Shown here piece after piece: positions 9,122 to 44,081 of a stretch of DNA of 64,000 nt. Positions within the stretch are counted from its first letter, which is position 1, and each line of letters begins with the position of its first letter. The notes beneath the pieces were generated by a model. The model had not been told where the DNA came from, searched no databases, and was given only the letters and a program-made list of their open reading frames with translations. The position numbers and the translations under genes were made by a program. The stretch is from Candidatus Levyibacteriota bacterium (GTDB lineage: Bacteria > Patescibacteriota > Microgenomatia > Levybacterales > GWA1-39-11), in the NCBI GenBank assembly GCA_036788695.1, contig DAIQMY010000001.1, forward strand, positions 150,792-214,791. Direction: 5' to 3'.

Positions 9122-9577
9122 TTATTGGCTAGTATTCCGAAGTGTAGGTATTTCAAACCCAGAAGTAAGGTAATTACCGGTAAAGATGTAAAGGACTGCG
9201 TTTATGATAACGTAGGCTAATATAACTATGATAAGTCCTACAATTGCTGCAACTATTGTAGAGCGTGCAGTATCAATTTTTCCTTTATCTCCGCCTGAAA
9301 GAATCCATCGAACGCCTCCATACAAAAGGAAAATAAGGGATAAAACAATTCCGATAATTATAATAGCGTTTATAATAAAAGCAATCAGTTGATTTGGTGA
9401 CACGTCAATATTCCCGATTGATTTAGGTGACTTAATTATTATAGGTTCAATATTCTGAGCAAATGCAGGGGTCGCTAGAACGGACATAAGAAGTGAGCCA
9501 AATGATACTGAGGCGGTATTTATTATTTTTTGCAAACTCATATGATTAATTAGAACATGTTTTTTTTTGCATGTCAA
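9122..9577 (-). CDS. T4SS pilin-like small membrane protein, paralog 2, with an N-terminal Sec-type signal peptide
   Basis: Core IFLLYGGVRWILSGGDKGKIDTARSTIVAAIVGLIIVIL. The track start at 9577 is TTG. An in-frame ATG at 9541 gives MSLQKIINTASVSFGSLLMSVLATPAFA-QN, a classic signal peptide. Confidence 0.6.
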   Translation of the reverse strand: MTCKKKHVLINHMSLQKIINTASVSFGSLLMSVLATPAFAQNIEPIIIKSPKSIGNIDVSPNQLIAFIINAIIIIGIVLSLIFLLYGGVRWILSGGDKGKIDTARSTIVAAIVGLIIVILAYVIINAVLYIFTGNYLTSGFEIPTLRNTSQ

Positions 9578-25525: not shown

Positions 25526-25972
25526 ATGAAAATTTTTAATAAACAAGCACCAGGAAATTTTAATGTTGAAGAGAGATATGAGGCGGGAATTGTTCTTCAG
25601 GGTCAAGAGGTGAAAGCCATAAAATTAGGGCATGCGGATCTAACCGGATCATACGTAAAACTTTTGGGATCTGAGGCGTATCTTATAAATTCCCGTATAT
25701 TCCCTTATGAATATGCGCGAGCGCAAGGTTATCAAGAGACAAGAACTAGAAAATTATTACTTCATAAAAAAGAATTATTAAAGTTAAAAAATAAACTTTC
25801 TGAAGGGAAACATACTTTAGTTGGTCTTTCTCTTTATGATACGAAAACAGGACTTGTAAAGATAGAGATTGGGCTTTCAAAAGGGAAAAAGAAACATGAG
25901 CGGGAAAAGGACGTAAGGCGCAGAGAATTAGACCTGCAATCCGAAAGGGAGTTTAAAGAAAAAAACTACTAG
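25526..25972 (+). CDS. smpB: SsrA-binding protein SmpB
   Basis: EAGIVLQGQEVKAIKLGHADLTGSYV and overall SmpB-like sequence. The tmRNA gene lies immediately downstream. Confidence 0.9.
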   Translation: MKIFNKQAPGNFNVEERYEAGIVLQGQEVKAIKLGHADLTGSYVKLLGSEAYLINSRIFPYEYARAQGYQETRTRKLLLHKKELLKLKNKLSEGKHTLVGLSLYDTKTGLVKIEIGLSKGKKKHEREKDVRRRELDLQSEREFKEKNY

Positions 25973-26058: not shown

Positions 26059-26459
26059 GGGGATGCAATGCATCGACAGGAATTGCTCTTTTACAACTGC
26101 AAGCCGGCGATGGTTCACAGCCGTAAAATAGGACCAAAAATACACGGTAAGTTTAATCTTACCCAGGGTCTCAAACGCGTTTTCGCGGATAGAGACATGT
26201 TTAAAGTAGGGCAACCTGCTTTTAACTTCGCTTAATAGCGCCTTGCTTACGCCCTTTCTTTTCTTAACGGATAAGCGTAGGTAAAAACCTTGTTAAGATA
26301 GGATTCAAGAAGTGATTAAACTTGAATTAGAAAAATTAGATCTTGGAACTGTTTCCCCTGTCAATTGGGTCAGAAATAGTTCGACAACAAAAAATTGACT
26401 ACGCTTGTAGATGTTTTAAAAAGTAGTTTTTGGACGGGAGGTCAAACTCCCCATCTCCA
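26059..26459 (+). ncRNA. ssrA: tmRNA (ssrA), about 401 nt, one-piece
   Basis: 5' GGGGATGCAATGCATCGACAGG (tRNA-like 5' end). 3' GGACGGGAGGTCAAACTCCCCATCTCCA (T-arm plus acceptor strand complementary to the 5' GGGGATG). Candidate tag ORF GCG GAT ... GCT TAA TAG (26185-26238) encodes ADRDMFKVGQPAFNFA followed by a double stop. Confidence 0.75.
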
Positions 26460-26466
26460 CACTTTA

Positions 26467-31018: not shown

Positions 31019-31078
31019 GGGAGTAATAATAATAACAATTTTTACCTATGCTTACAACCCGGGGAAGGAGGTTGTGGG

Positions 31079-31150
31079 TGGGCGCGGCAGGATTTGAACC
31101 TGCGACCAATTGTGTATAAGACAACCGCTCTACCACTGAGCTACACGCCC
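31079..31150 (-). tRNA. tRNA-Ile with anticodon UAU (decodes AUA), 72 nt
   Basis: Reverse complement GGGCGTG-TA-GCTC-AGTGGTA-GAGC-G-GTTGT-CTTATAC-ACAAT-TGGTC-GCAGG-TTCAAAT-CCTGC-CGCGCCC-A. Clean cloverleaf with a 7-bp acceptor stem, U33, anticodon TAT, A37 and discriminator A. Confidence 0.7.
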
Positions 31151-31205
31151 AAAAACGAAACTGTGGTAAATTATAGCACGAGAAAGGTAAATATTCGATT
31201 CGTAA

Positions 31206-33638
31206 TTATACAAGGCCGCCGTTGCCGCCACCTAGTTTATCTTCTCCCGGGTTACCAAATGGGTCCTCACCGCCAGGGCCCAGGTCACCAAACACCTCAA
31301 AGAGTTTAGATCGTTTTGCAATTTCTGCTTCTACCAATTCCTTGGGTTTTCCGTACTTTAGTCTGGATAATTCTTTAACTAGTTCAGCGACCCGAGGGTT
31401 TGCCATCCTTCGTTCTGCTTCAATATCCCGTGTAAGATCCATTGAAAATGGGGGAGCTGGTTCATTTTTTATAACAGTTTTTACATAAGCGTGACGAGCT
31501 TCAATATTTATTAAATCAGCTTCGGTAAAGGTAGGTTGGAATTCATGCTGAAGATAATTTGCGTCAGATACACCTACTCGGAAGGATACAATGGTTCCAA
31601 CATTTCCAAAGATAGCATTTTTAATTTCCTCTTCAATCTGTCCTATGAACTGGTTTGCAACTATCAAGTTCAATCTATATTTTCTTGCCTCAGAGAGTAT
31701 TTGTGCAAAATCAGGTGTTGCAAAGTTTTGGAACTCGTCAACATAGAGGAAAAAATCGCGTCTTTGTTCTTGTGGAATATCTTGTCTACTCATGGCAGCA
31801 ACGAGTATTTTAGGAACGAGTATAAGCCCAAGAAAGTTTGAGTTTTCTTCACCTATTTTCCCTTTGGCAAGAGAGATAAGAAGAATTTTACCCTCATCCA
31901 TTGAGCGTCTAAAATTAAAGGAGGAATCAGATTGACCAATCATATTTCTCATCATAGTGTTTGTAACAAATCGTCCAAATTTTGAGGTAATATAATCCAG
32001 TACTTCAGATTTATGAAAATCTGATGTCTGAGCAATCTGGTCAGTCCAGTAACGTCTAATAATAGGATCTTTTACTTTGGGAAGAAGTTCTTGAACAAAA
32101 TTTTGATCAGTTAAAACACGCATAACCTCTACAAAGGTGTTCCCTGGCTCCGACATAACAGTAAGCATAGCGTTTCTTACAGCGTGTTCAAATCGAGGTC
32201 CTATGATACCTGTTTGGTGTGGGTCAAAGAGTTTATACATGAGCCCTATAATAGATGTTACAACCAAATGTTTTTGTTCTTCGGTTTGTGCTTCAAGCAT
32301 GTTTAACCCCATGGGGCGTTCTGTGTCTGATGGGTCAAAAAGTATTACGTCTTCCGCGCGTTCAGGTGGGATAAGCGGTAAGATTAAGTCTATTGTGTCA
32401 TGAGGATCAATAAAGCAAACTCCGTGACCGGCCTTAATATCTTGCAGTATCATATCTTTTAGAAATTCAGACTTTCCGACCCCCGTTTTTCCAACTATAT
32501 ACATATGCCGTCTCCTGTCATCTTCTCCTATGTATATAGGCTTGGAATTTCCTCTGTATTCACTTTTCCCTATGTAGAGTCCGGTTGTTGGAATACTTGC
32601 GGGCGCAGGCGCGCTGCGGGCAGCCAACCAGTGGATATGTGGGCTTTCAACTGATTTATTTGGAAAGTGGAAAATAGTTGCGAGTTCATCAACTGAAAGT
32701 ACAGAACCTTTCTTCAGAAGAGGGAGCGTTCTGTAGATAAAATCCACCATGAACATCCCTTTAAAATACTTCATTTTTTCCTTGGAGAAAGAATTATATG
32801 AGGAGAATTGTGTAAATGAGGTCACCATATTTTCTAAGTGCGCATTTGCTGCTTCTTTTGAGGAAGATGAGACAACAAGTCTAATATAGGTATTAAATGC
32901 GGGTTTTGACAGTTTTCCTTCAATTGCTTCTAGTTCTTTTTGGTCGACTGAATATTTTGCTGTCTCAGGATTTGCTTCTCGTTTTTTAATACCGGTGATA
33001 TGTGCTCTCCCTTGCTTTTTCCATTTCCCGTCAGTAGGGGTGATAAGTATTTGAATAGCAGCAGACTCCCCTTCCTGCATTTTTCCAAGAGTTGAAACCA
33101 TAGTTGACATTGGATCAACAGGAAGTTGCTGAAATGACTTGATCGGGATATAAGGCGAAGACTTAAGAACCAGTCCTGCAAATGCTACCTTGCTTTCATC
33201 CGTAAAAATATCATATTCCTCAGCAGGTGAAATGTTTGCGTCGGGATATGCTCCGTGGATTTGTTTCTCAACCATATCCTCCAATTTTTTAGGAATTGAT
33301 ACATAAAACCTGATATCTCCTGGTTTTGCGACTATTTCAAACGCGATATAATCAGGTACTTTTGAAAATCCAAGTAGTCCTTTTGCGCCTTTTATTCCAG
33401 AAAAGGCTGAAAACATTTGTTCTGCTGCATCTATCTTTATCTCATTTTCGCGAGGTAGCTGTACCTCAAGCAAGACCATATCAAGAGCCTTTTTCTGTCT
33501 TTCTCGGTTTTTTTTCCAGAAAAGATAAGCAATATACGCTCCTAGGACCGCAAACACAATTATGCTGGTGAGAAGAATCCCTATTGCAAGAACAAAAAGA
33601 AGCGTGATGATGTTGTTTACTACGTCTATTCCTGTCAT
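31206..33638 (-). CDS. VirD4/TraG/TraD-like type IV coupling protein candidate (membrane-anchored P-loop ATPase, 810 aa)
   Basis: N-terminal TM region. Walker A HMYIVGKTGVGKSEF. Walker B FFLYVDEFQNFA (the DEFxN motif is typical of T4CPs). Followed by ARKYRLNLIVANQFIGQI, which is like the T4CP xxQSxxQL motif. HerA/FtsK-like alternatives cannot be excluded from sequence alone. Confidence 0.5.
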   Translation of the reverse strand: MTGIDVVNNIITLLFVLAIGILLTSIIVFAVLGAYIAYLFWKKNRERQKKALDMVLLEVQLPRENEIKIDAAEQMFSAFSGIKGAKGLLGFSKVPDYIAFEIVAKPGDIRFYVSIPKKLEDMVEKQIHGAYPDANISPAEEYDIFTDESKVAFAGLVLKSSPYIPIKSFQQLPVDPMSTMVSTLGKMQEGESAAIQILITPTDGKWKKQGRAHITGIKKREANPETAKYSVDQKELEAIEGKLSKPAFNTYIRLVVSSSSKEAANAHLENMVTSFTQFSSYNSFSKEKMKYFKGMFMVDFIYRTLPLLKKGSVLSVDELATIFHFPNKSVESPHIHWLAARSAPAPASIPTTGLYIGKSEYRGNSKPIYIGEDDRRRHMYIVGKTGVGKSEFLKDMILQDIKAGHGVCFIDPHDTIDLILPLIPPERAEDVILFDPSDTERPMGLNMLEAQTEEQKHLVVTSIIGLMYKLFDPHQTGIIGPRFEHAVRNAMLTVMSEPGNTFVEVMRVLTDQNFVQELLPKVKDPIIRRYWTDQIAQTSDFHKSEVLDYITSKFGRFVTNTMMRNMIGQSDSSFNFRRSMDEGKILLISLAKGKIGEENSNFLGLILVPKILVAAMSRQDIPQEQRRDFFLYVDEFQNFATPDFAQILSEARKYRLNLIVANQFIGQIEEEIKNAIFGNVGTIVSFRVGVSDANYLQHEFQPTFTEADLINIEARHAYVKTVIKNEPAPPFSMDLTRDIEAERRMANPRVAELVKELSRLKYGKPKELVEAEIAKRSKLFEVFGDLGPGGEDPFGNPGEDKLGGGNGGLV

Positions 33639-34172: not shown

Positions 34173-34253
34173 GCATCCATGATATCACCTATGCATTCTT
34201 TTGGCAATTTCACAAACCTAACAGAAGAGTAACAAGATGAAACGAGTAATATG

Positions 34254-34345
34254 CGGAGGAGACAGGATTTGAACCTGCGCGAGCCTGTTTAAGGGGCTCA
34301 GGGGGTTAGCAACCCCCCGCAATGGACCAACTATGCGACTCCTCC
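34254..34345 (-). tRNA. tRNA-Ser (anticodon GCU), class II with long variable arm
   Basis: Reverse complement GGAGGAG-TC-GCA-TAGTTGGTCCAT-TGC-G-GGGGG-TTGCTAA-CCCCC-(variable arm GAGCC...GGCTC)-GCAGG-TTCAAAT-CCTGT-CTCCTCC-G. Confidence 0.85.
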
Positions 34346-34411
34346 AAGCCTTGCAATTATACCATGAGGAAGTAGAAATATGGCTTGTTACATGATATAG
34401 TCTGAATGTGA

Positions 34412-34496
34412 GGAGAGGTCGCATAGTGGTCTAGTGCAGCGGTTTACTAAACCGCCGTATCGCAAGATACCGAGAGTTCGAATCTCTCCCTCTCCG
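34412..34496 (+). tRNA. Class II Ser-type tRNA with apparent anticodon ACU (atypical); paralog of the tRNA-Ser(UGA) at 35456
   Basis: GGAGAGG-TC-GCA-TAGTGGTCTAG-TGC-A-GCGGT-TTACTAA-ACCGC-(variable arm GTATC-GCAA-GATAC)-GAGAG-TTCGAAT-CTCTC-CCTCTCC-G. The 5-bp GC-rich anticodon stem forces a TTACTAA loop, giving positions 34-36 as ACT. Confidence 0.55.
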
Positions 34497-34519
34497 CATT
34501 ATTATAATTCTCTTCTTTT

Positions 34520-34530
34520 TGGTATAATTC
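34520..34530 (+). promoter_or_regulatory. Extended -10 promoter element TGGTATAAT, 8 nt upstream of the ATG of the 142-aa gene (short or absent leader)
   Basis: TGgTATAAT at 34520-34528; ATG at 34537. Confidence 0.3.
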
Positions 34531-34536
34531 CCCTTC

Positions 34537-34965
34537 ATGAGTATTATTGAAGCAGCAACATCTATATTTGAAGATAAAATTCAAAGAACAGCCGCAAGGG
34601 AAATGAATATGCGATATAAAAAAGGGGAGGAGCTGATACTGGATACAGCAAGAGACGCGCGGTGGATTGTTTCAGAAAGTGGATTTTCAGATATTTTAAT
34701 GGTTCAGGATTCGCTTCGGGCATTTGTAGATATAGGAATTAGGAAAAGAGATTTGCAGATTGCAGACGATACAAGGTTGGCTTTTCTAAATATTCCAAGC
34801 CCTATGGTACAAAAAGCTATATTGAGGGGAGCTTGTCGGGAGGCAATCTTGTTTTGGGATGAAAAACTGCGTGAACCTGATGCATTATATGAAGTTGTAC
34901 AATATGGTCCTGAGAGGATTGATTTTTTTAATTTTCAACTTGCCAACCTACAACAAAAGACGTAA
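34537..34965 (+). CDS. Hypothetical protein (142 aa)
   Basis: ORF with ATG start and a promoter-like element immediately upstream. Confidence 0.4.
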   Translation: MSIIEAATSIFEDKIQRTAAREMNMRYKKGEELILDTARDARWIVSESGFSDILMVQDSLRAFVDIGIRKRDLQIADDTRLAFLNIPSPMVQKAILRGACREAILFWDEKLREPDALYEVVQYGPERIDFFNFQLANLQQKT

Positions 34966-35053
34966 AGAGGCGCAGTTACTTGTCTTACCGTATTCTCACA
35001 GTTTTCATATAGACTTTTTGTGTAGTCCGGCAGTATACTGTATATAATAAGGT

Positions 35054-35365
35054 ATGCTAGCACTACTATTAATAATTCTTATTGCCCTATGGTTTTTAGG
35101 ATATATTCACATTGCAGGGTATATTCCTAACTTTCCCTTATTTTCTATTAATAATCACAGTGTTTCTTTGTGGGACATTTTAATTCTTTTGGCAATTGGG
35201 TGGGCAATAGGAATTCTCCCAAGCCCTCTTCGTCAAATAGCTGCGGCACTCCTTATTATTTGGATTCTTGCAACGCTTGGAATAATCGCTATTGGAGGAC
35301 TTGCACAAATAATAGTTCTTGCTATTATCGCGGGAGTGATCCTTGCGCTTCTAGATGTTGTGTAG
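35054..35365 (+). CDS. Small hydrophobic membrane protein (103 aa), hypothetical
   Basis: ORF composed almost entirely of hydrophobic helices. Confidence 0.35.
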   Translation: MLALLLIILIALWFLGYIHIAGYIPNFPLFSINNHSVSLWDILILLAIGWAIGILPSPLRQIAAALLIIWILATLGIIAIGGLAQIIVLAIIAGVILALLDVV

Positions 35366-35455
35366 CTTCATATTAGACCCCAAATACGTTATAATACATA
35401 AACTTGGAGAGATCGTGTAAGGAACTTTATAGACCTTGTTTGACTCTCCATATAT

Positions 35456-35542
35456 GGAGAGGTCGCATAGTGGTTTAGTGCGAAGGTCTTGAAAACCTTT
35501 ATGGGGGAAACCTCATCGGGGGTTCGAATCCCCCCCTCTCCG
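35456..35542 (+). tRNA. tRNA-Ser (anticodon UGA), class II
   Basis: GGAGAGG-TC-GCA-TAGTGGTTTAG-TGC-G-AAGGT-CTTGAAA-ACCTT-(variable arm)-GGGGG-TTCGAAT-CCCCC-CCTCTCC-G. Confidence 0.85.
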
Positions 35543-35650
35543 CATAAGGTCGTTGATGTGCCAAGCTTGGCTGTGAAATAACGGAAATCCTATTGATTTG
35601 TTCTGTCTCCTCTGTTAAGAATTTATTAATTTCTCAATACCAAAAAAATT

Positions 35651-41498: not shown

Positions 41499-41960
41499 AT
41501 GTTAAATTTTTTGAAGATATCATTTCCTTATGCTGTAGCTCATGCCCACTGTGATATTCCCTGTGGAATATACGACCCAAACGGTGCCCAGTTAGCGGCG
41601 CATACTGTGCTTAGGATGACACAGTTACTATCTGAGAAAACTGAGACCCATGACGTAGCAAGAATTACTCATGTTAAAGAGGAACATGGTGAGGCAATTG
41701 AAGAAGAGTTGGGTACGCTTGAAAATGATTATTTTAAACCAGAACACTTTGAGCAATTTCCGGAATTAAAAGGTCTTCTTTCTGATTCAGTGAAGTTATC
41801 TATTGAAACCCGGCAGCACATAGATATTCAAAAAGCTGAAGAGCTACTTGAGAAAGTCTTACAAATTTCAGAGATATTTTATAAAACAAAGAATGTAACT
41901 CCAGTAAGGGTTTCTTCTGTTTATCCAACAAAAGGAGAGATTGTAGCCTATACCGCATGA
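41499..41960 (+). CDS. sodN: Nickel-containing superoxide dismutase precursor (NiSOD)
   Basis: Leader MLNFLKISFPYAVAHA followed by HCDIPCGIYDP, the Ni-hook (His1, Cys2, Cys6 of the mature protein). Confidence 0.85.
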   Translation: MLNFLKISFPYAVAHAHCDIPCGIYDPNGAQLAAHTVLRMTQLLSEKTETHDVARITHVKEEHGEAIEEELGTLENDYFKPEHFEQFPELKGLLSDSVKLSIETRQHIDIQKAEELLEKVLQISEIFYKTKNVTPVRVSSVYPTKGEIVAYTA

Positions 41961-42241
41961 TTCTAGGTATCTTCAAAATAACAGGTCACAGTATGGAGCC
42001 TACGATTAAAAATGGTGATAGTGTTCTTGCGGTGGGCATGTTTTCCATCAAAAAAGGGGATGTGATTGTATTCCAGAATGACTCTAAATATTTTGTAAAG
42101 CGGGTAGCCGCAATAATTGGGGATAAGGTGAAAGTTTTAGGAGATAACCCGGAAGATAGTTTTGACAGCCGTAATTTTGGAGAAATTGAAAAAGATGTTA
42201 TTATTGGGAAAGTAATAAAAAAATTTAAATGGTTTTTTTAA
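41957..42241 (+). CDS. sodX: NiSOD maturation peptidase SodX (S24/S26 signal-peptidase-like)
   Basis: GHSMEPTIKNGDSVL catalytic Ser motif. Overlaps the sodN stop (ATGA). Confidence 0.75.
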   Translation: MILGIFKITGHSMEPTIKNGDSVLAVGMFSIKKGDVIVFQNDSKYFVKRVAAIIGDKVKVLGDNPEDSFDSRNFGEIEKDVIIGKVIKKFKWFF

Positions 42242-42774: not shown

Positions 42775-43041
42775 ATGGAATCGCCCCGATGTCAGAGTTG
42801 TGGGCAACCACTCTCTATTACTAACTTCGGTACAAATGCAAGTGGTACTTATAATGAAGAGTACTGTAGTATGTGTTTTCAGAAAGGACAGTTTACGGAT
42901 TCGGACATCACGCTTTCCCAAATGATGCAAATATCCGTGAATCATATGGTAAATGCGCTTCACATGAATGAGAATGAAGCAAGAAGTACTGTTTTAGAAG
43001 TAATACCAAAACTTAAAAGATGGAAAAATGTGAGAACTTAA
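42775..43041 (+). CDS. Zinc-ribbon domain protein (88 aa)
   Basis: CQSCGQ...CSMC pairs. Confidence 0.4.
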   Translation: MESPRCQSCGQPLSITNFGTNASGTYNEEYCSMCFQKGQFTDSDITLSQMMQISVNHMVNALHMNENEARSTVLEVIPKLKRWKNVRT

Positions 43042-44081
43042 AGTTTCTTTTTAAGGCTTAAAAGACTCCATCTTACTTTATCTGCAACTTTAATAAATTC
43101 ATACATTACTGGGTTTATTATCAGGTCATAACTTCCTACGTATTCTGTAAGAGTTGCGCCGTATCCTTGTTTGAATTTGTGGAAGCCATACCATGGATCT
43201 TTTGTGTTGGGATCAGGGTTTAGTGCGCCCCACATATCAAACTTTTTCAATTTTTCTTTTTTCCCAAAACGGATTGCTTCCCACATTATTAAATTGTTTG
43301 CCATCATTTCCCTGTGTTCCCTGGAAGACGCGCCATAGGGATAGTAAAGAGTATCATGAAACGAGAAAAGTACCCAAGAAGTCAGTATCTTTTCAGTTTC
43401 ATCAACGTTGACTGATGCATGGAACAGGTGGTATGAAAGTGCGGAGGTTTTTTTAGATAATTCTTCCCAGAGTTTTCTGTGATAAGAACGTGTATGAGCA
43501 TAAAATTTTTGTCGTGTAGTTGTTTCTTCATATAGTTTTAAAAATGATAAAAATCCTTTCTCTGAGTTGTCCTCTTTAATTTCTACATTATGCTTTAGGG
43601 CAATTTTTATATTGTAGCGGGTCTTTGGATGCATACCTGATAGAAGGCTTTCTTCTCCAGGAGTTAAATCTAGAACAAATGAATACTTAGTGAAGAGTGG
43701 GCGGAAGGAGTATTTTAGTGGGATATTTTCATTTAGTATCAATTGTTCAATTTCAAACGTACCGGCTGAGGCAGTAATATTTGGTTCAAGTTGTATGTAT
43801 ATACAATTATGTTTTTTTGCCTGCTCAGCAATATCTGCTAGAAGTTTAGTATTTGGAAGATTTCCCTTTGGAAGATAGCCAATAGTATATGGTAATTTCG
43901 GAATTTTGTGAATAGTCATGGTGTAGCAATTTGTAATATTTTTCTTTTCCCCAATTTCGCCACGTCTTACAATTTTGACCCCAGTACTTTTCCTAAATTC
44001 ACCCCATTCATATGACTGAAGAGGGTGTGTAACTGCCTTATTATATTCCTCTTTATAATTGTTTGTGATATCTGTAAACAT
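43038..44081 (-). CDS. FemAB-family peptidoglycan interpeptide-bridge aminoacyltransferase candidate
   Basis: N-terminal LQSYEWGEFRKSTG resembles the FemAB N-terminus (SWEWGEF). Length and alpha/beta pattern are consistent. Confidence 0.55.
   Translation of the reverse strand: MFTDITNNYKEEYNKAVTHPLQSYEWGEFRKSTGVKIVRRGEIGEKKNITNCYTMTIHKIPKLPYTIGYLPKGNLPNTKLLADIAEQAKKHNCIYIQLEPNITASAGTFEIEQLILNENIPLKYSFRPLFTKYSFVLDLTPGEESLLSGMHPKTRYNIKIALKHNVEIKEDNSEKGFLSFLKLYEETTTRQKFYAHTRSYHRKLWEELSKKTSALSYHLFHASVNVDETEKILTSWVLFSFHDTLYYPYGASSREHREMMANNLIMWEAIRFGKKEKLKKFDMWGALNPDPNTKDPWYGFHKFKQGYGATLTEYVGSYDLIINPVMYEFIKVADKVRWSLLSLKKKL

Follow-up and report, generated by a model that had tools for sequence, protein, structure and literature searches.

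Why should a bacterium encode an adenosine as the opening base of the anticodon in a serine tRNA whose codons share a split box with those of arginine? The question is raised by a 64,000-nucleotide stretch of a Candidatus Levyibacteriota genome (contig DAIQMY010000001.1, positions 150,792 to 214,791; "the window" below is the whole of this stretch), in which a third serine-type tRNA gene, with the anticodon ACU, lies between genes for tRNA-Ser(GCU) and tRNA-Ser(UGA). Except for Ile, all split-box ANN anticodons have been listed as universally missing, phages included (Ehrlich et al. 2021, PMC8007984), and a survey of 4,047 bacteria in GtRNAdb found split-box ANN genes only sporadically and called their absence a deep mystery (bioRxiv 10.64898/2026.05.15.725136). 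In our literature searches we met with no published account of such a tRNA-Ser(ACU) occurring naturally, either in bacteria or in phages. We consider it probable, if well short of certain, that the gene encodes a functional elongator serine tRNA with an unmodified A34, which reads AGU by Watson-Crick pairing alongside tRNA-Ser(GCU).

tRNA genes in the window were called with ARAGORN and cross-checked against the Rfam model RF00005 (gathering score 29). Four were found, all scoring above that threshold, and three of them are the class II Ser-type genes that a preliminary description of this DNA, made from the sequence alone, had reported: tRNA-Ser(GCU) at 34253-34345 on the minus strand (53.2 bits), tRNA-Ser(ACU) at 34412-34497 on the plus strand (54.6 bits) and tRNA-Ser(UGA) at 35456-35543, also on the plus strand (60.3 bits). 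The first two are divergent, as described earlier, and are separated by a spacer of 66 bp. The GCU gene is the canonical AGY decoder and the UGA gene is the UCN decoder.

The Rfam alignment gives the middle gene the anticodon ACU, which lies within a loop of 7 nt (UUACUAA) on the stem GCGGU/ACCGC; this is the placement first described, and ARAGORN, run as a further check, puts the anticodon nowhere else. All stems of the cloverleaf are paired. It has a 7-bp acceptor stem (GGAGAGG/CCUCUCC), a D-arm GCAU..GUGC, G18G19, U33 in the anticodon loop, a variable arm consisting of a 5-bp stem and a 4-nt loop that covaries across the Ser(ACU) family, and a 5-bp T stem within the arm GAGAG-UUCGAAU-CUCUC, the T-loop UUCGAAU being canonical; the CCA end is not encoded. 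The serine identity set is in place (G1-C72, G2-C71, A3-U70, C11-G24, the discriminator G73 and the long variable arm). The U36-A37 of the loop is the usual context for t6A37 (N6-threonylcarbamoyladenosine) in bacterial tRNAs that read ANN codons. The near-identity of acceptor stem and D-arm to tRNA-Ser(UGA), noted earlier, is borne out, with identical acceptor stems and D-arms one base apart, and the loops of the canonical tRNA-Ser(GCU) and of tRNA-Ser(ACU) differ at position 34 alone (UUGCUAA versus UUACUAA). An allo-tRNA, which accepts Ser but has 8/4 or 9/3 acceptor/T arms and a non-Ser anticodon, is ruled out by the standard 7/5 geometry and by the pairing of ACU with a serine codon.

Independent assemblies contain an identical Ser(ACU) gene (ENA ERZ794922, Logan SRR2107210 and one GenBank metagenome-assembled genome, or MAG), and a second GenBank MAG has a copy that differs by a single D-loop base; this recurrence rules out an error of reading or assembly. 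For comparison with relatives, the neighbouring TraG-like protein was used to collect 80 loci with the same synteny among the species representatives of GTDB, which makes the sampling independent of the tRNA sequence. ARAGORN finds Ser(ACU) beside the Ser cluster in the loci numbered L003, L030, L020 and L024, whose TraG-like proteins are 87, 87, 74 and 73% identical, respectively, as well as in loci of the same species. Among six syntenic Levybacteria orthologues the loop TTACTAA is invariant, and compensatory changes are seen in the acceptor, D, anticodon and T stems: the acceptor stem occurs as GGAGAGG, GGAGGGG or GGAGGAG, each with the matching 3' strand, the anticodon stem as GCGGT/ACCGC or ACGGT/ACCGT, and the T stem as GAGAG/CTCTC, GCAGG/CCTGT or GCGAG/CTCGC. 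An invariant loop with compensatory stem changes points to a working tRNA and not to a decaying paralogue. No decayed ACU copies were seen in the loci without the gene, where the only matches were to halves of the UGA gene. Judged from these sequence comparisons, the Ser(ACU) gene is real and under selection. The preliminary description had offered a recently diverged or inactive paralogue as one explanation; this does not fit a gene that is conserved across species whose TraG-like proteins are 73-87% identical, that belongs to a large covarying family, and whose identity to the accompanying GCU gene is only about 66%.

The origin of the gene was considered with the seven loop nucleotides masked. 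The nearest relatives of the window gene are then other ACU genes (89-94%), followed by UGA and CGA genes of Levybacteria (about 87%); within its own genome it is closest to the UGA body, at an identity of 0.77 versus 0.66 to GCU. Over the 55 loci that have both genes, the mean identity of ACU to the co-resident GCU is 0.66, and a UCN-type Ser tRNA is the closer relative of the ACU gene in 12 of 15 loci. The low identity to GCU and the closeness to UCN-type tRNAs indicate that the Ser(ACU) family is a long-separated isoacceptor lineage and not a set of recurrent G34A mutants of GCU.

To see how far the family extends, we scanned metagenome contigs from JGI and viral contigs from IMG/VR with the pattern GGTTTACTAAACC, a gap of 14-28 nt, and then GTTCRAATC. 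This pattern is tied to one anticodon-stem sequence, so that the resulting counts, at least 120 loci in the JGI contigs and at least 120 in IMG/VR, are lower bounds. Among the matches listed, ARAGORN calls tRNA-Ser(ACU) in 118 of 120 metagenome loci and in all 120 viral loci, and the 238 genes represent 172 distinct sequences. RNAalifold, applied to 89 distinct members from Levybacteria and metagenomes, recovered the cloverleaf with its long variable arm and found double compensatory changes in 19 of the 27 predicted pairs. Loop invariance in the large set is imposed by the search pattern, and only the syntenic Levybacteria set informs on conservation of the loop.

Many of the metagenome contigs carry Ser(GCU) 30-1500 bp from Ser(ACU). 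Eight contigs from the candidate phyla radiation (CPR) have a compact cluster of Ser(GCU), Ser(ACU), Arg(GCG) and Ser(CGA), to which seven add Ser(UGA) and the eighth Ser(GGA), with Arg(CCG) also present in five; the ACU bodies in these eight resemble that of the window. A second ACU body type (GGAGGCGTGGATGAG...) adjoins an enolase gene whose named relatives belong to Candidatus Paceibacterota or Nomurabacteria, so that the family spans both Microgenomates and Parcubacteria. The viral Ser(ACU) genes lie in arrays of up to 21 tRNAs, in company with Asn(GUU), Thr(UGU), Gln(UUG), Arg(UCU), Glu(UUC) and Lys(UUU), and Ser(GCU) stands beside Ser(ACU) in one of 120 among the matches listed. Three of the phage arrays hold both Ser(ACU) and Arg(ACG), and their hosts therefore presumably have TadA; four arrays carry Arg(GCG). 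The viral contigs are true phages, a statement based on a handful checked for phage genes, and some IMG/VR contigs may be misclassified; one of them encodes a T4-type clamp loader that, among cultured phages, comes nearest to those of pelagimyophages and of the Methylophilales phage Melnitz, with an amino-acid identity of about 55%. Among 50,697 records of cultured or annotated phages, queries with two full ACU tRNAs, with the 34-nt anticodon arm and with ten families by megablast returned no shared ACU anticodon arm. The deposited-phage tRNA-Ser genes that were checked have GCU, UGA, CGA or GGA and none has ACU, or else the matches are confined to the 3' end, and Ser(ACU) is also missing from the regions examined in Melnitz-3 and in an uncultured phage of 595 kb. 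On the sequences collected, the family is old and widespread, being found in Patescibacteria (Microgenomates and Parcubacteria) and in the tRNA arrays of uncultivated AT-rich phages.

An ACU anticodon would be of a different significance if the meaning of the AGN codons had shifted. The 55 long open reading frames (ORFs) of the window contain 288 AGA, 107 AGG, 220 AGU and 138 AGC codons, and AGA, at 15.2 per 1000, is the commonest Arg codon. We aligned the window proteins with those of relatives lacking an ACU gene at the locus (tblastn), taking as conserved any column in which at least 80% of the relatives agree. At window AGA codons, 41 of 43 conserved columns are R and none is S; at AGG, 12 of 13 are R; at AGU, eight of nine are S. 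A codon-interchange test, which is independent of the translation table, gives the same picture: opposite window AGA the relatives have AGR in 50% of cases, CGN in 30%, and AGY and TCN together in 0.8%, and opposite window AGU they have AGY in 30%, TCN in 17% and Arg codons in 0.5%. AGA and AGG are arginine and AGU and AGC are serine, so this genome uses the standard code, and reassignment of AGA or AGG to Ser is ruled out by residue alignment and codon interchange alike. The suggestion in the preliminary description of a tRNA related to codon reassignment falls with it, and the count of AGA and AGY usage that it had called for has now been made.

We picture the working of this tRNA as follows. 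The gene is probably expressed, to judge from a promoter-like site just upstream, and its product would be serylated, given its identity features. Seryl-tRNA synthetase (SerRS) identifies its tRNAs by the variable arm and the acceptor end, without touching the anticodon; because all of its identity features are present and it does not read the anticodon, SerRS should charge this tRNA with serine. The encoded A34 would stay unmodified, since CPR bacteria appear to lack the tRNA-Arg(ACG)/TadA inosine system. The tRNA would then read AGU by full Watson-Crick pairing, with the neighbouring tRNA-Ser(GCU) covering AGC, and AGU by wobble, and with AGA and AGG left to arginine. By analogy with published artificial tRNAs bearing the ACU anticodon, an unmodified A34 and specificity for AGU are the most likely state of affairs. 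Across AT-rich CPR genomes and phages with Ser(ACU) the median GC is 0.39 and AGU is about twice as frequent as AGC, pooled values that are only mildly suggestive; in such genomes a tRNA that pairs with AGU in Watson-Crick fashion could plausibly act as a helper.

Several observations weigh against this reading. The fraction AGU/(AGU+AGC) is 0.45-0.83 in Levybacteria loci with the ACU gene and 0.41-0.68 in those without, which, in small samples, is no clear separation. The gene is also patchy: at this position only the UGA and GCU genes are present in the loci L011 to L014, whose protein identity is 86-88%, and in loci further removed (absence here covers some 10 kb to each side of the marker gene, and the ACU gene may lie elsewhere in those genomes), and a patchy distribution suggests that Ser(ACU) is either dispensable or moves. 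In some contexts, as with Gly, Pro and Mycoplasma Thr, an unmodified A34 can read beyond U. A Pfam scan of the small window proteins found no deaminase, and neither TadA nor tRNA-Arg(ACG) is encoded in the window, but 64 kb are uninformative for the whole genome. Finally, the one split-box A34 tRNA that a 2026 preprint sequenced in E. coli, Phe-tRNA(AAA), was partly converted to inosine (bioRxiv 10.64898/2026.05.15.725136), which implies that deamination is possible in phage hosts that have TadA.

The last of these points leads to the alternative in which TadA, or some other deaminase, converts A34 to inosine; the resulting ICU anticodon would then read AGU, AGC and, weakly, AGA, and the tRNA would duplicate or replace tRNA-Ser(GCU) as a general AGY decoder. 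The loop has U33-A34-C35 and A37-A38 in common with the TadA substrate; at locus L024 the ACU and UGA genes are accompanied by no GCU gene within the 15 kb seen, and AGC is used very little there; and the three phage arrays with Arg(ACG), together with the partial deamination of Phe-tRNA(AAA), also favour it. Compared in full, however, the loop U32 U33 A34 C35 U36 A37 A38 departs from the TadA substrate C32 U33 A34 C35 G36 A37 A38 at positions 32 and 36, and deamination by TadA is blocked by loop changes at positions 32, 37 or 38 (PMC11066159). In E. coli, an orthogonal tRNA with ACU in an Arg2-like loop acquired no inosine (Schmitt et al. 2024, PMC11066159) and read AGU at 9.4% and AGG at 0.36%, with AGC and AGA below detection. 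A Ser-tRNA(ACU) with a native body improved the growth of E. coli when overexpressed, with a low predicted mistranslation load (bioRxiv 10.64898/2026.05.15.725136). As for the enzyme, CPR bacteria appear to lack tRNA-Arg(ACG), using GCG, UCG and CCG instead (Shulgina and Eddy, PMC8629427), and a genome with no ACG tRNA has no need of TadA. The eight compact-cluster contigs support that published statement, as Arg(GCG) is found in all eight, Arg(CCG) in five and Arg(ACG) in none. Deamination would moreover be costly, since ICU would place Ser at AGA, the most used Arg codon, and most cellular loci keep GCU next to ACU. Inosine formation at this A34 in CPR bacteria is unlikely, and the alternative as a whole, like the earlier suggestion of a substrate for an expanded TadA activity, seems to us to have a rather small chance of being correct.

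A second alternative places the advantage in the loop rather than in decoding: the altered loop might escape an anticodon nuclease or tRNA-targeting toxin that cuts tRNA-Ser(GCU), serving phages as counter-defence and CPR bacteria as a resistant back-up. The evasion of nucleases by phage tRNAs through loop changes has been proposed (PMC10264068), and the family's abundance in phage arrays, the near-absence there of a Ser(GCU) neighbour (one of 120 among the matches listed) and the patchiness among close Levybacteria would all suit such a role. These hosts, however, have no known nuclease directed against Ser(GCU), nor did the window show one, and the Levybacteria copy has a CPR-type body and sits in a conserved chromosomal tRNA cluster with no mobile-element genes nearby. 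The AT-rich codon usage, with AGU about twice AGC, accounts equally well for the phage copies, and escape from a nuclease is in any event compatible with a decoding role and not opposed to it. We therefore rate this explanation as improbable.

Still less can be said for a non-translational serine donor, supplying for instance a FemAB-type peptidoglycan transferase, with the odd anticodon keeping the tRNA off the ribosome. Staphylococci do have dedicated cell-wall tRNAs, and a gene for a FemAB-family aminoacyl-tRNA-dependent transferase lies about 8.5 kb downstream (43038-44081, minus strand). The anticodon loop, though, is strictly conserved, as decoding would demand; ACU pairs with a real and frequently used Ser codon; the same tRNA occurs in phage arrays of the translation type; and the T-arm and G18G19 are canonical, all of which makes a donor role very improbable. 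A decaying or inactive Ser(UGA) paralogue, or a tRNA reassigning AGA to serine, would suit the UGA-like body and the usual avoidance of A34, but is scarcely credible in the face of purifying selection and covariation across species and phyla, the want of degenerate copies in loci without the gene, and the alignment of AGA with Arg and CGN codons and not with Ser. What stands of the preliminary description is thus the class II Ser-type gene with a true ACU anticodon and a UGA-related body, while none of the three functional options that it offered agrees with the observations.

If the preferred reading of an unmodified, AGU-specific serine tRNA is accepted, it should be asked why serine in particular escapes the ban on A34. 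As a control, the commonest phage anticodon arms for Asn, Tyr and Cys were taken from the collected loci, changed from G34 to A, and scanned in IMG/VR. The Asn A34 arm gave three matches, of which ARAGORN called one a tRNA, the Tyr arm two matches with one so called, and the Cys arm none. By comparison, the Asn arm with G34 gave at least 120 matches, as did the Ser arm with GCU (otherwise as for ACU) and the Ser arm with ACU, for which 120 of the 120 matches listed were called tRNAs. Serine is the clear exception among the A34 versions scanned. The isolated phage tRNAs called Asn(AUU) (L337, 5882-5955) and Tyr(AUA) (L340, 2459-2544) lie within otherwise normal arrays; with one valid match each in IMG/VR, they may be recent mutants or sequencing errors. 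The synthetases for Asn, Tyr and Cys, like most others of the split boxes, use positions 34-36 as identity elements. The exception of serine is thus probably explained by the indifference of SerRS to the anticodon, so that replacing G34 by A34 carries no penalty for charging. A second factor, seen in the E. coli data, is that A34 pairs poorly opposite the A or G of AGR codons.

Several known systems invite comparison. In Mycoplasma and other Mollicutes, tRNA-Thr(AGU) has an unmodified A34 (Andachi 1987; Inagaki 1995, as reported in PMC11066159). As far as that account goes, the likeness lies in an encoded A34 that stays adenosine (as it would in Ser(ACU)), that is conserved and that is used in translation, and in a small AT-rich genome in which the TadA system is reduced or lost. 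The same account has the Mycoplasma tRNA serving a four-fold box, where it reads several ACN codons and misreading is harmless, whereas Ser(ACU) works in the split AGN box beside arginine codons and coexists with a G34 isoacceptor. The ANN tRNAs of four-fold boxes, such as tRNA-Leu(AAG) of the Lactobacillales with I34, resemble Ser(ACU) in being encoded and retained over evolutionary time in AT-rich lineages, but they replace the GNN isoacceptor, and at least those for Arg and Leu are deaminated by TadA; Ser(ACU) belongs to a split box, has GCU kept beside it, and occurs in a lineage that appears to be without the ACG/TadA system. With the canonical bacterial tRNA-Ser(GCU) it has the identity set, the codon box and, position 34 apart, the loop in common, but at about 66% identity, and usually closer to the UCN type, it is unlike a recent G34A derivative. 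Closest in anticodon are the engineered ACU tRNAs of E. coli (PMC11066159; bioRxiv 10.64898/2026.05.15.725136), which read AGU selectively and escape TadA in an orthogonal body and are neutral or beneficial on overexpression. Those tRNAs are artificial, whereas the Ser(ACU) family occurs in nature and is both conserved and widespread, something that the two papers say does not happen.

The broadest statement that these results invite is that the ban on split-box A34 has in Ser(ACU) a natural exception of ancient origin and wide distribution, an AGU specialist with an authentic A34 in two major CPR lineages and many uncultivated phages, and that serine is excepted because SerRS ignores the anticodon; we regard the case for and against it in this full form as about evenly balanced. 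If it is true, a natural system is at hand for asking why A34 is otherwise excluded from the decoding set. The contrast between a common Ser(ACU) and the nearly absent Asn, Tyr and Cys equivalents narrows the explanation of the "forbidden" anticodons, pointing to synthetase recognition of position 34 and misreading driven by inosine, and away from a general defect of A34 on the ribosome, and the natural Ser(ACU) tRNAs can be used to test that idea. Earlier surveys covered cultured genomes (GtRNAdb) and cultured phages, while Ser(ACU) is common in the groups that they miss, the CPR bacteria and environmental phages. For annotation, Ser(ACU) genes should not be dropped as pseudogenes.

The immediate surroundings of the three serine tRNA genes are simple. 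A promoter-like site on the plus strand (34373-34401; TAGAAA, 17 nt, TG-TATAGT; 9/12 in a consensus scan, with the TG of an extended -10) ends 10 nt 5' of Ser(ACU), a pattern match that does not by itself prove expression, and a similar one (35367-35395, plus strand; TTCATA, 17 nt, TATAAT; 10/12) lies upstream of Ser(UGA). Between the ACU and UGA genes the ORF list has two small hypothetical genes on the plus strand, encoding 142 aa (34537-34965) and a hydrophobic, membrane-like 103 aa (35054-35365), both without a Pfam match. The preliminary description had mentioned small hypothetical genes flanking the cluster and the absence of an integrase; no integrase was found, nor any mobile-element gene near the Ser tRNAs of the window. 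GC content across the window is flat, at 0.31-0.42 (0.39-0.40 around the tRNA genes), and the neighbourhood is a syntenic core with genes for the TraG-like DUF8128 protein, SpoIID, SmpB and transfer-messenger RNA (tmRNA). A phage or mobile tRNA island is ruled out by these core neighbours, together with the flat GC, the CPR-type tRNA body and the lack of integrase or phage genes. Among close relatives the Ser tRNA cluster is often reshuffled in order, orientation and spacing; in L003 (5124-5320), UGA is followed by ACU after 27 nt, with nothing between.

The marker gene used for synteny encodes an 810-aa TraG/VirD4-like ATPase (31206-33638, minus strand; DUF8128, with weak matches to TraG-D_C and TrwB). 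Thousands of homologues have 65-89% identity, and those that are named belong to Candidatus Levybacteria or Patescibacteria; the gene belongs to the syntenic core of Levybacteria. A small protein like a type IV secretion system pilin is encoded at 9122-9577 on the minus strand, and the chromosome shows no further conjugation genes in the vicinity of either. Many third-party MAG records among the related loci (TPA_asm, "binchicken", SRP co-assemblies) are labelled "uncultured Gammaproteobacteria bacterium", but their gene content and closest relatives are those of Levybacteria and other CPR bacteria, and their organism names are thus unreliable.

The fourth tRNA gene of the window, tRNA-Ile(UAU) at 31075-31151 on the minus strand, adjoins the TraG-like gene in almost all of the 80 Levybacteria and Microgenomates loci. 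AUA is very common in the window (608 uses, 32 per 1000), and this suggests that these CPR bacteria read AUA by means of a UAU tRNA, instead of or besides the lysidine (TilS) route. To our knowledge, just a handful of bacteria, Mycoplasma mobile among them, have such an arrangement.

The remaining gene set of the window, with tmRNA, SmpB, SpoIID, nickel superoxide dismutase (Ni-SOD), FemAB and type IV pilus genes, is typical of CPR bacteria. The tmRNA gene (26059-26462, plus strand; 105.8 bits with Rfam) lies directly 3' of smpB (25526-25972, plus strand); ARAGORN does not report it, although it reports tmRNA in the related loci L026 and L028. Near the FemAB-family gene, the interval 41499-42241 on the plus strand holds the Ni-SOD gene and, after it and overlapping its end, a gene for an S24/S26-type peptidase, which is probably the maturation protease of SodN.

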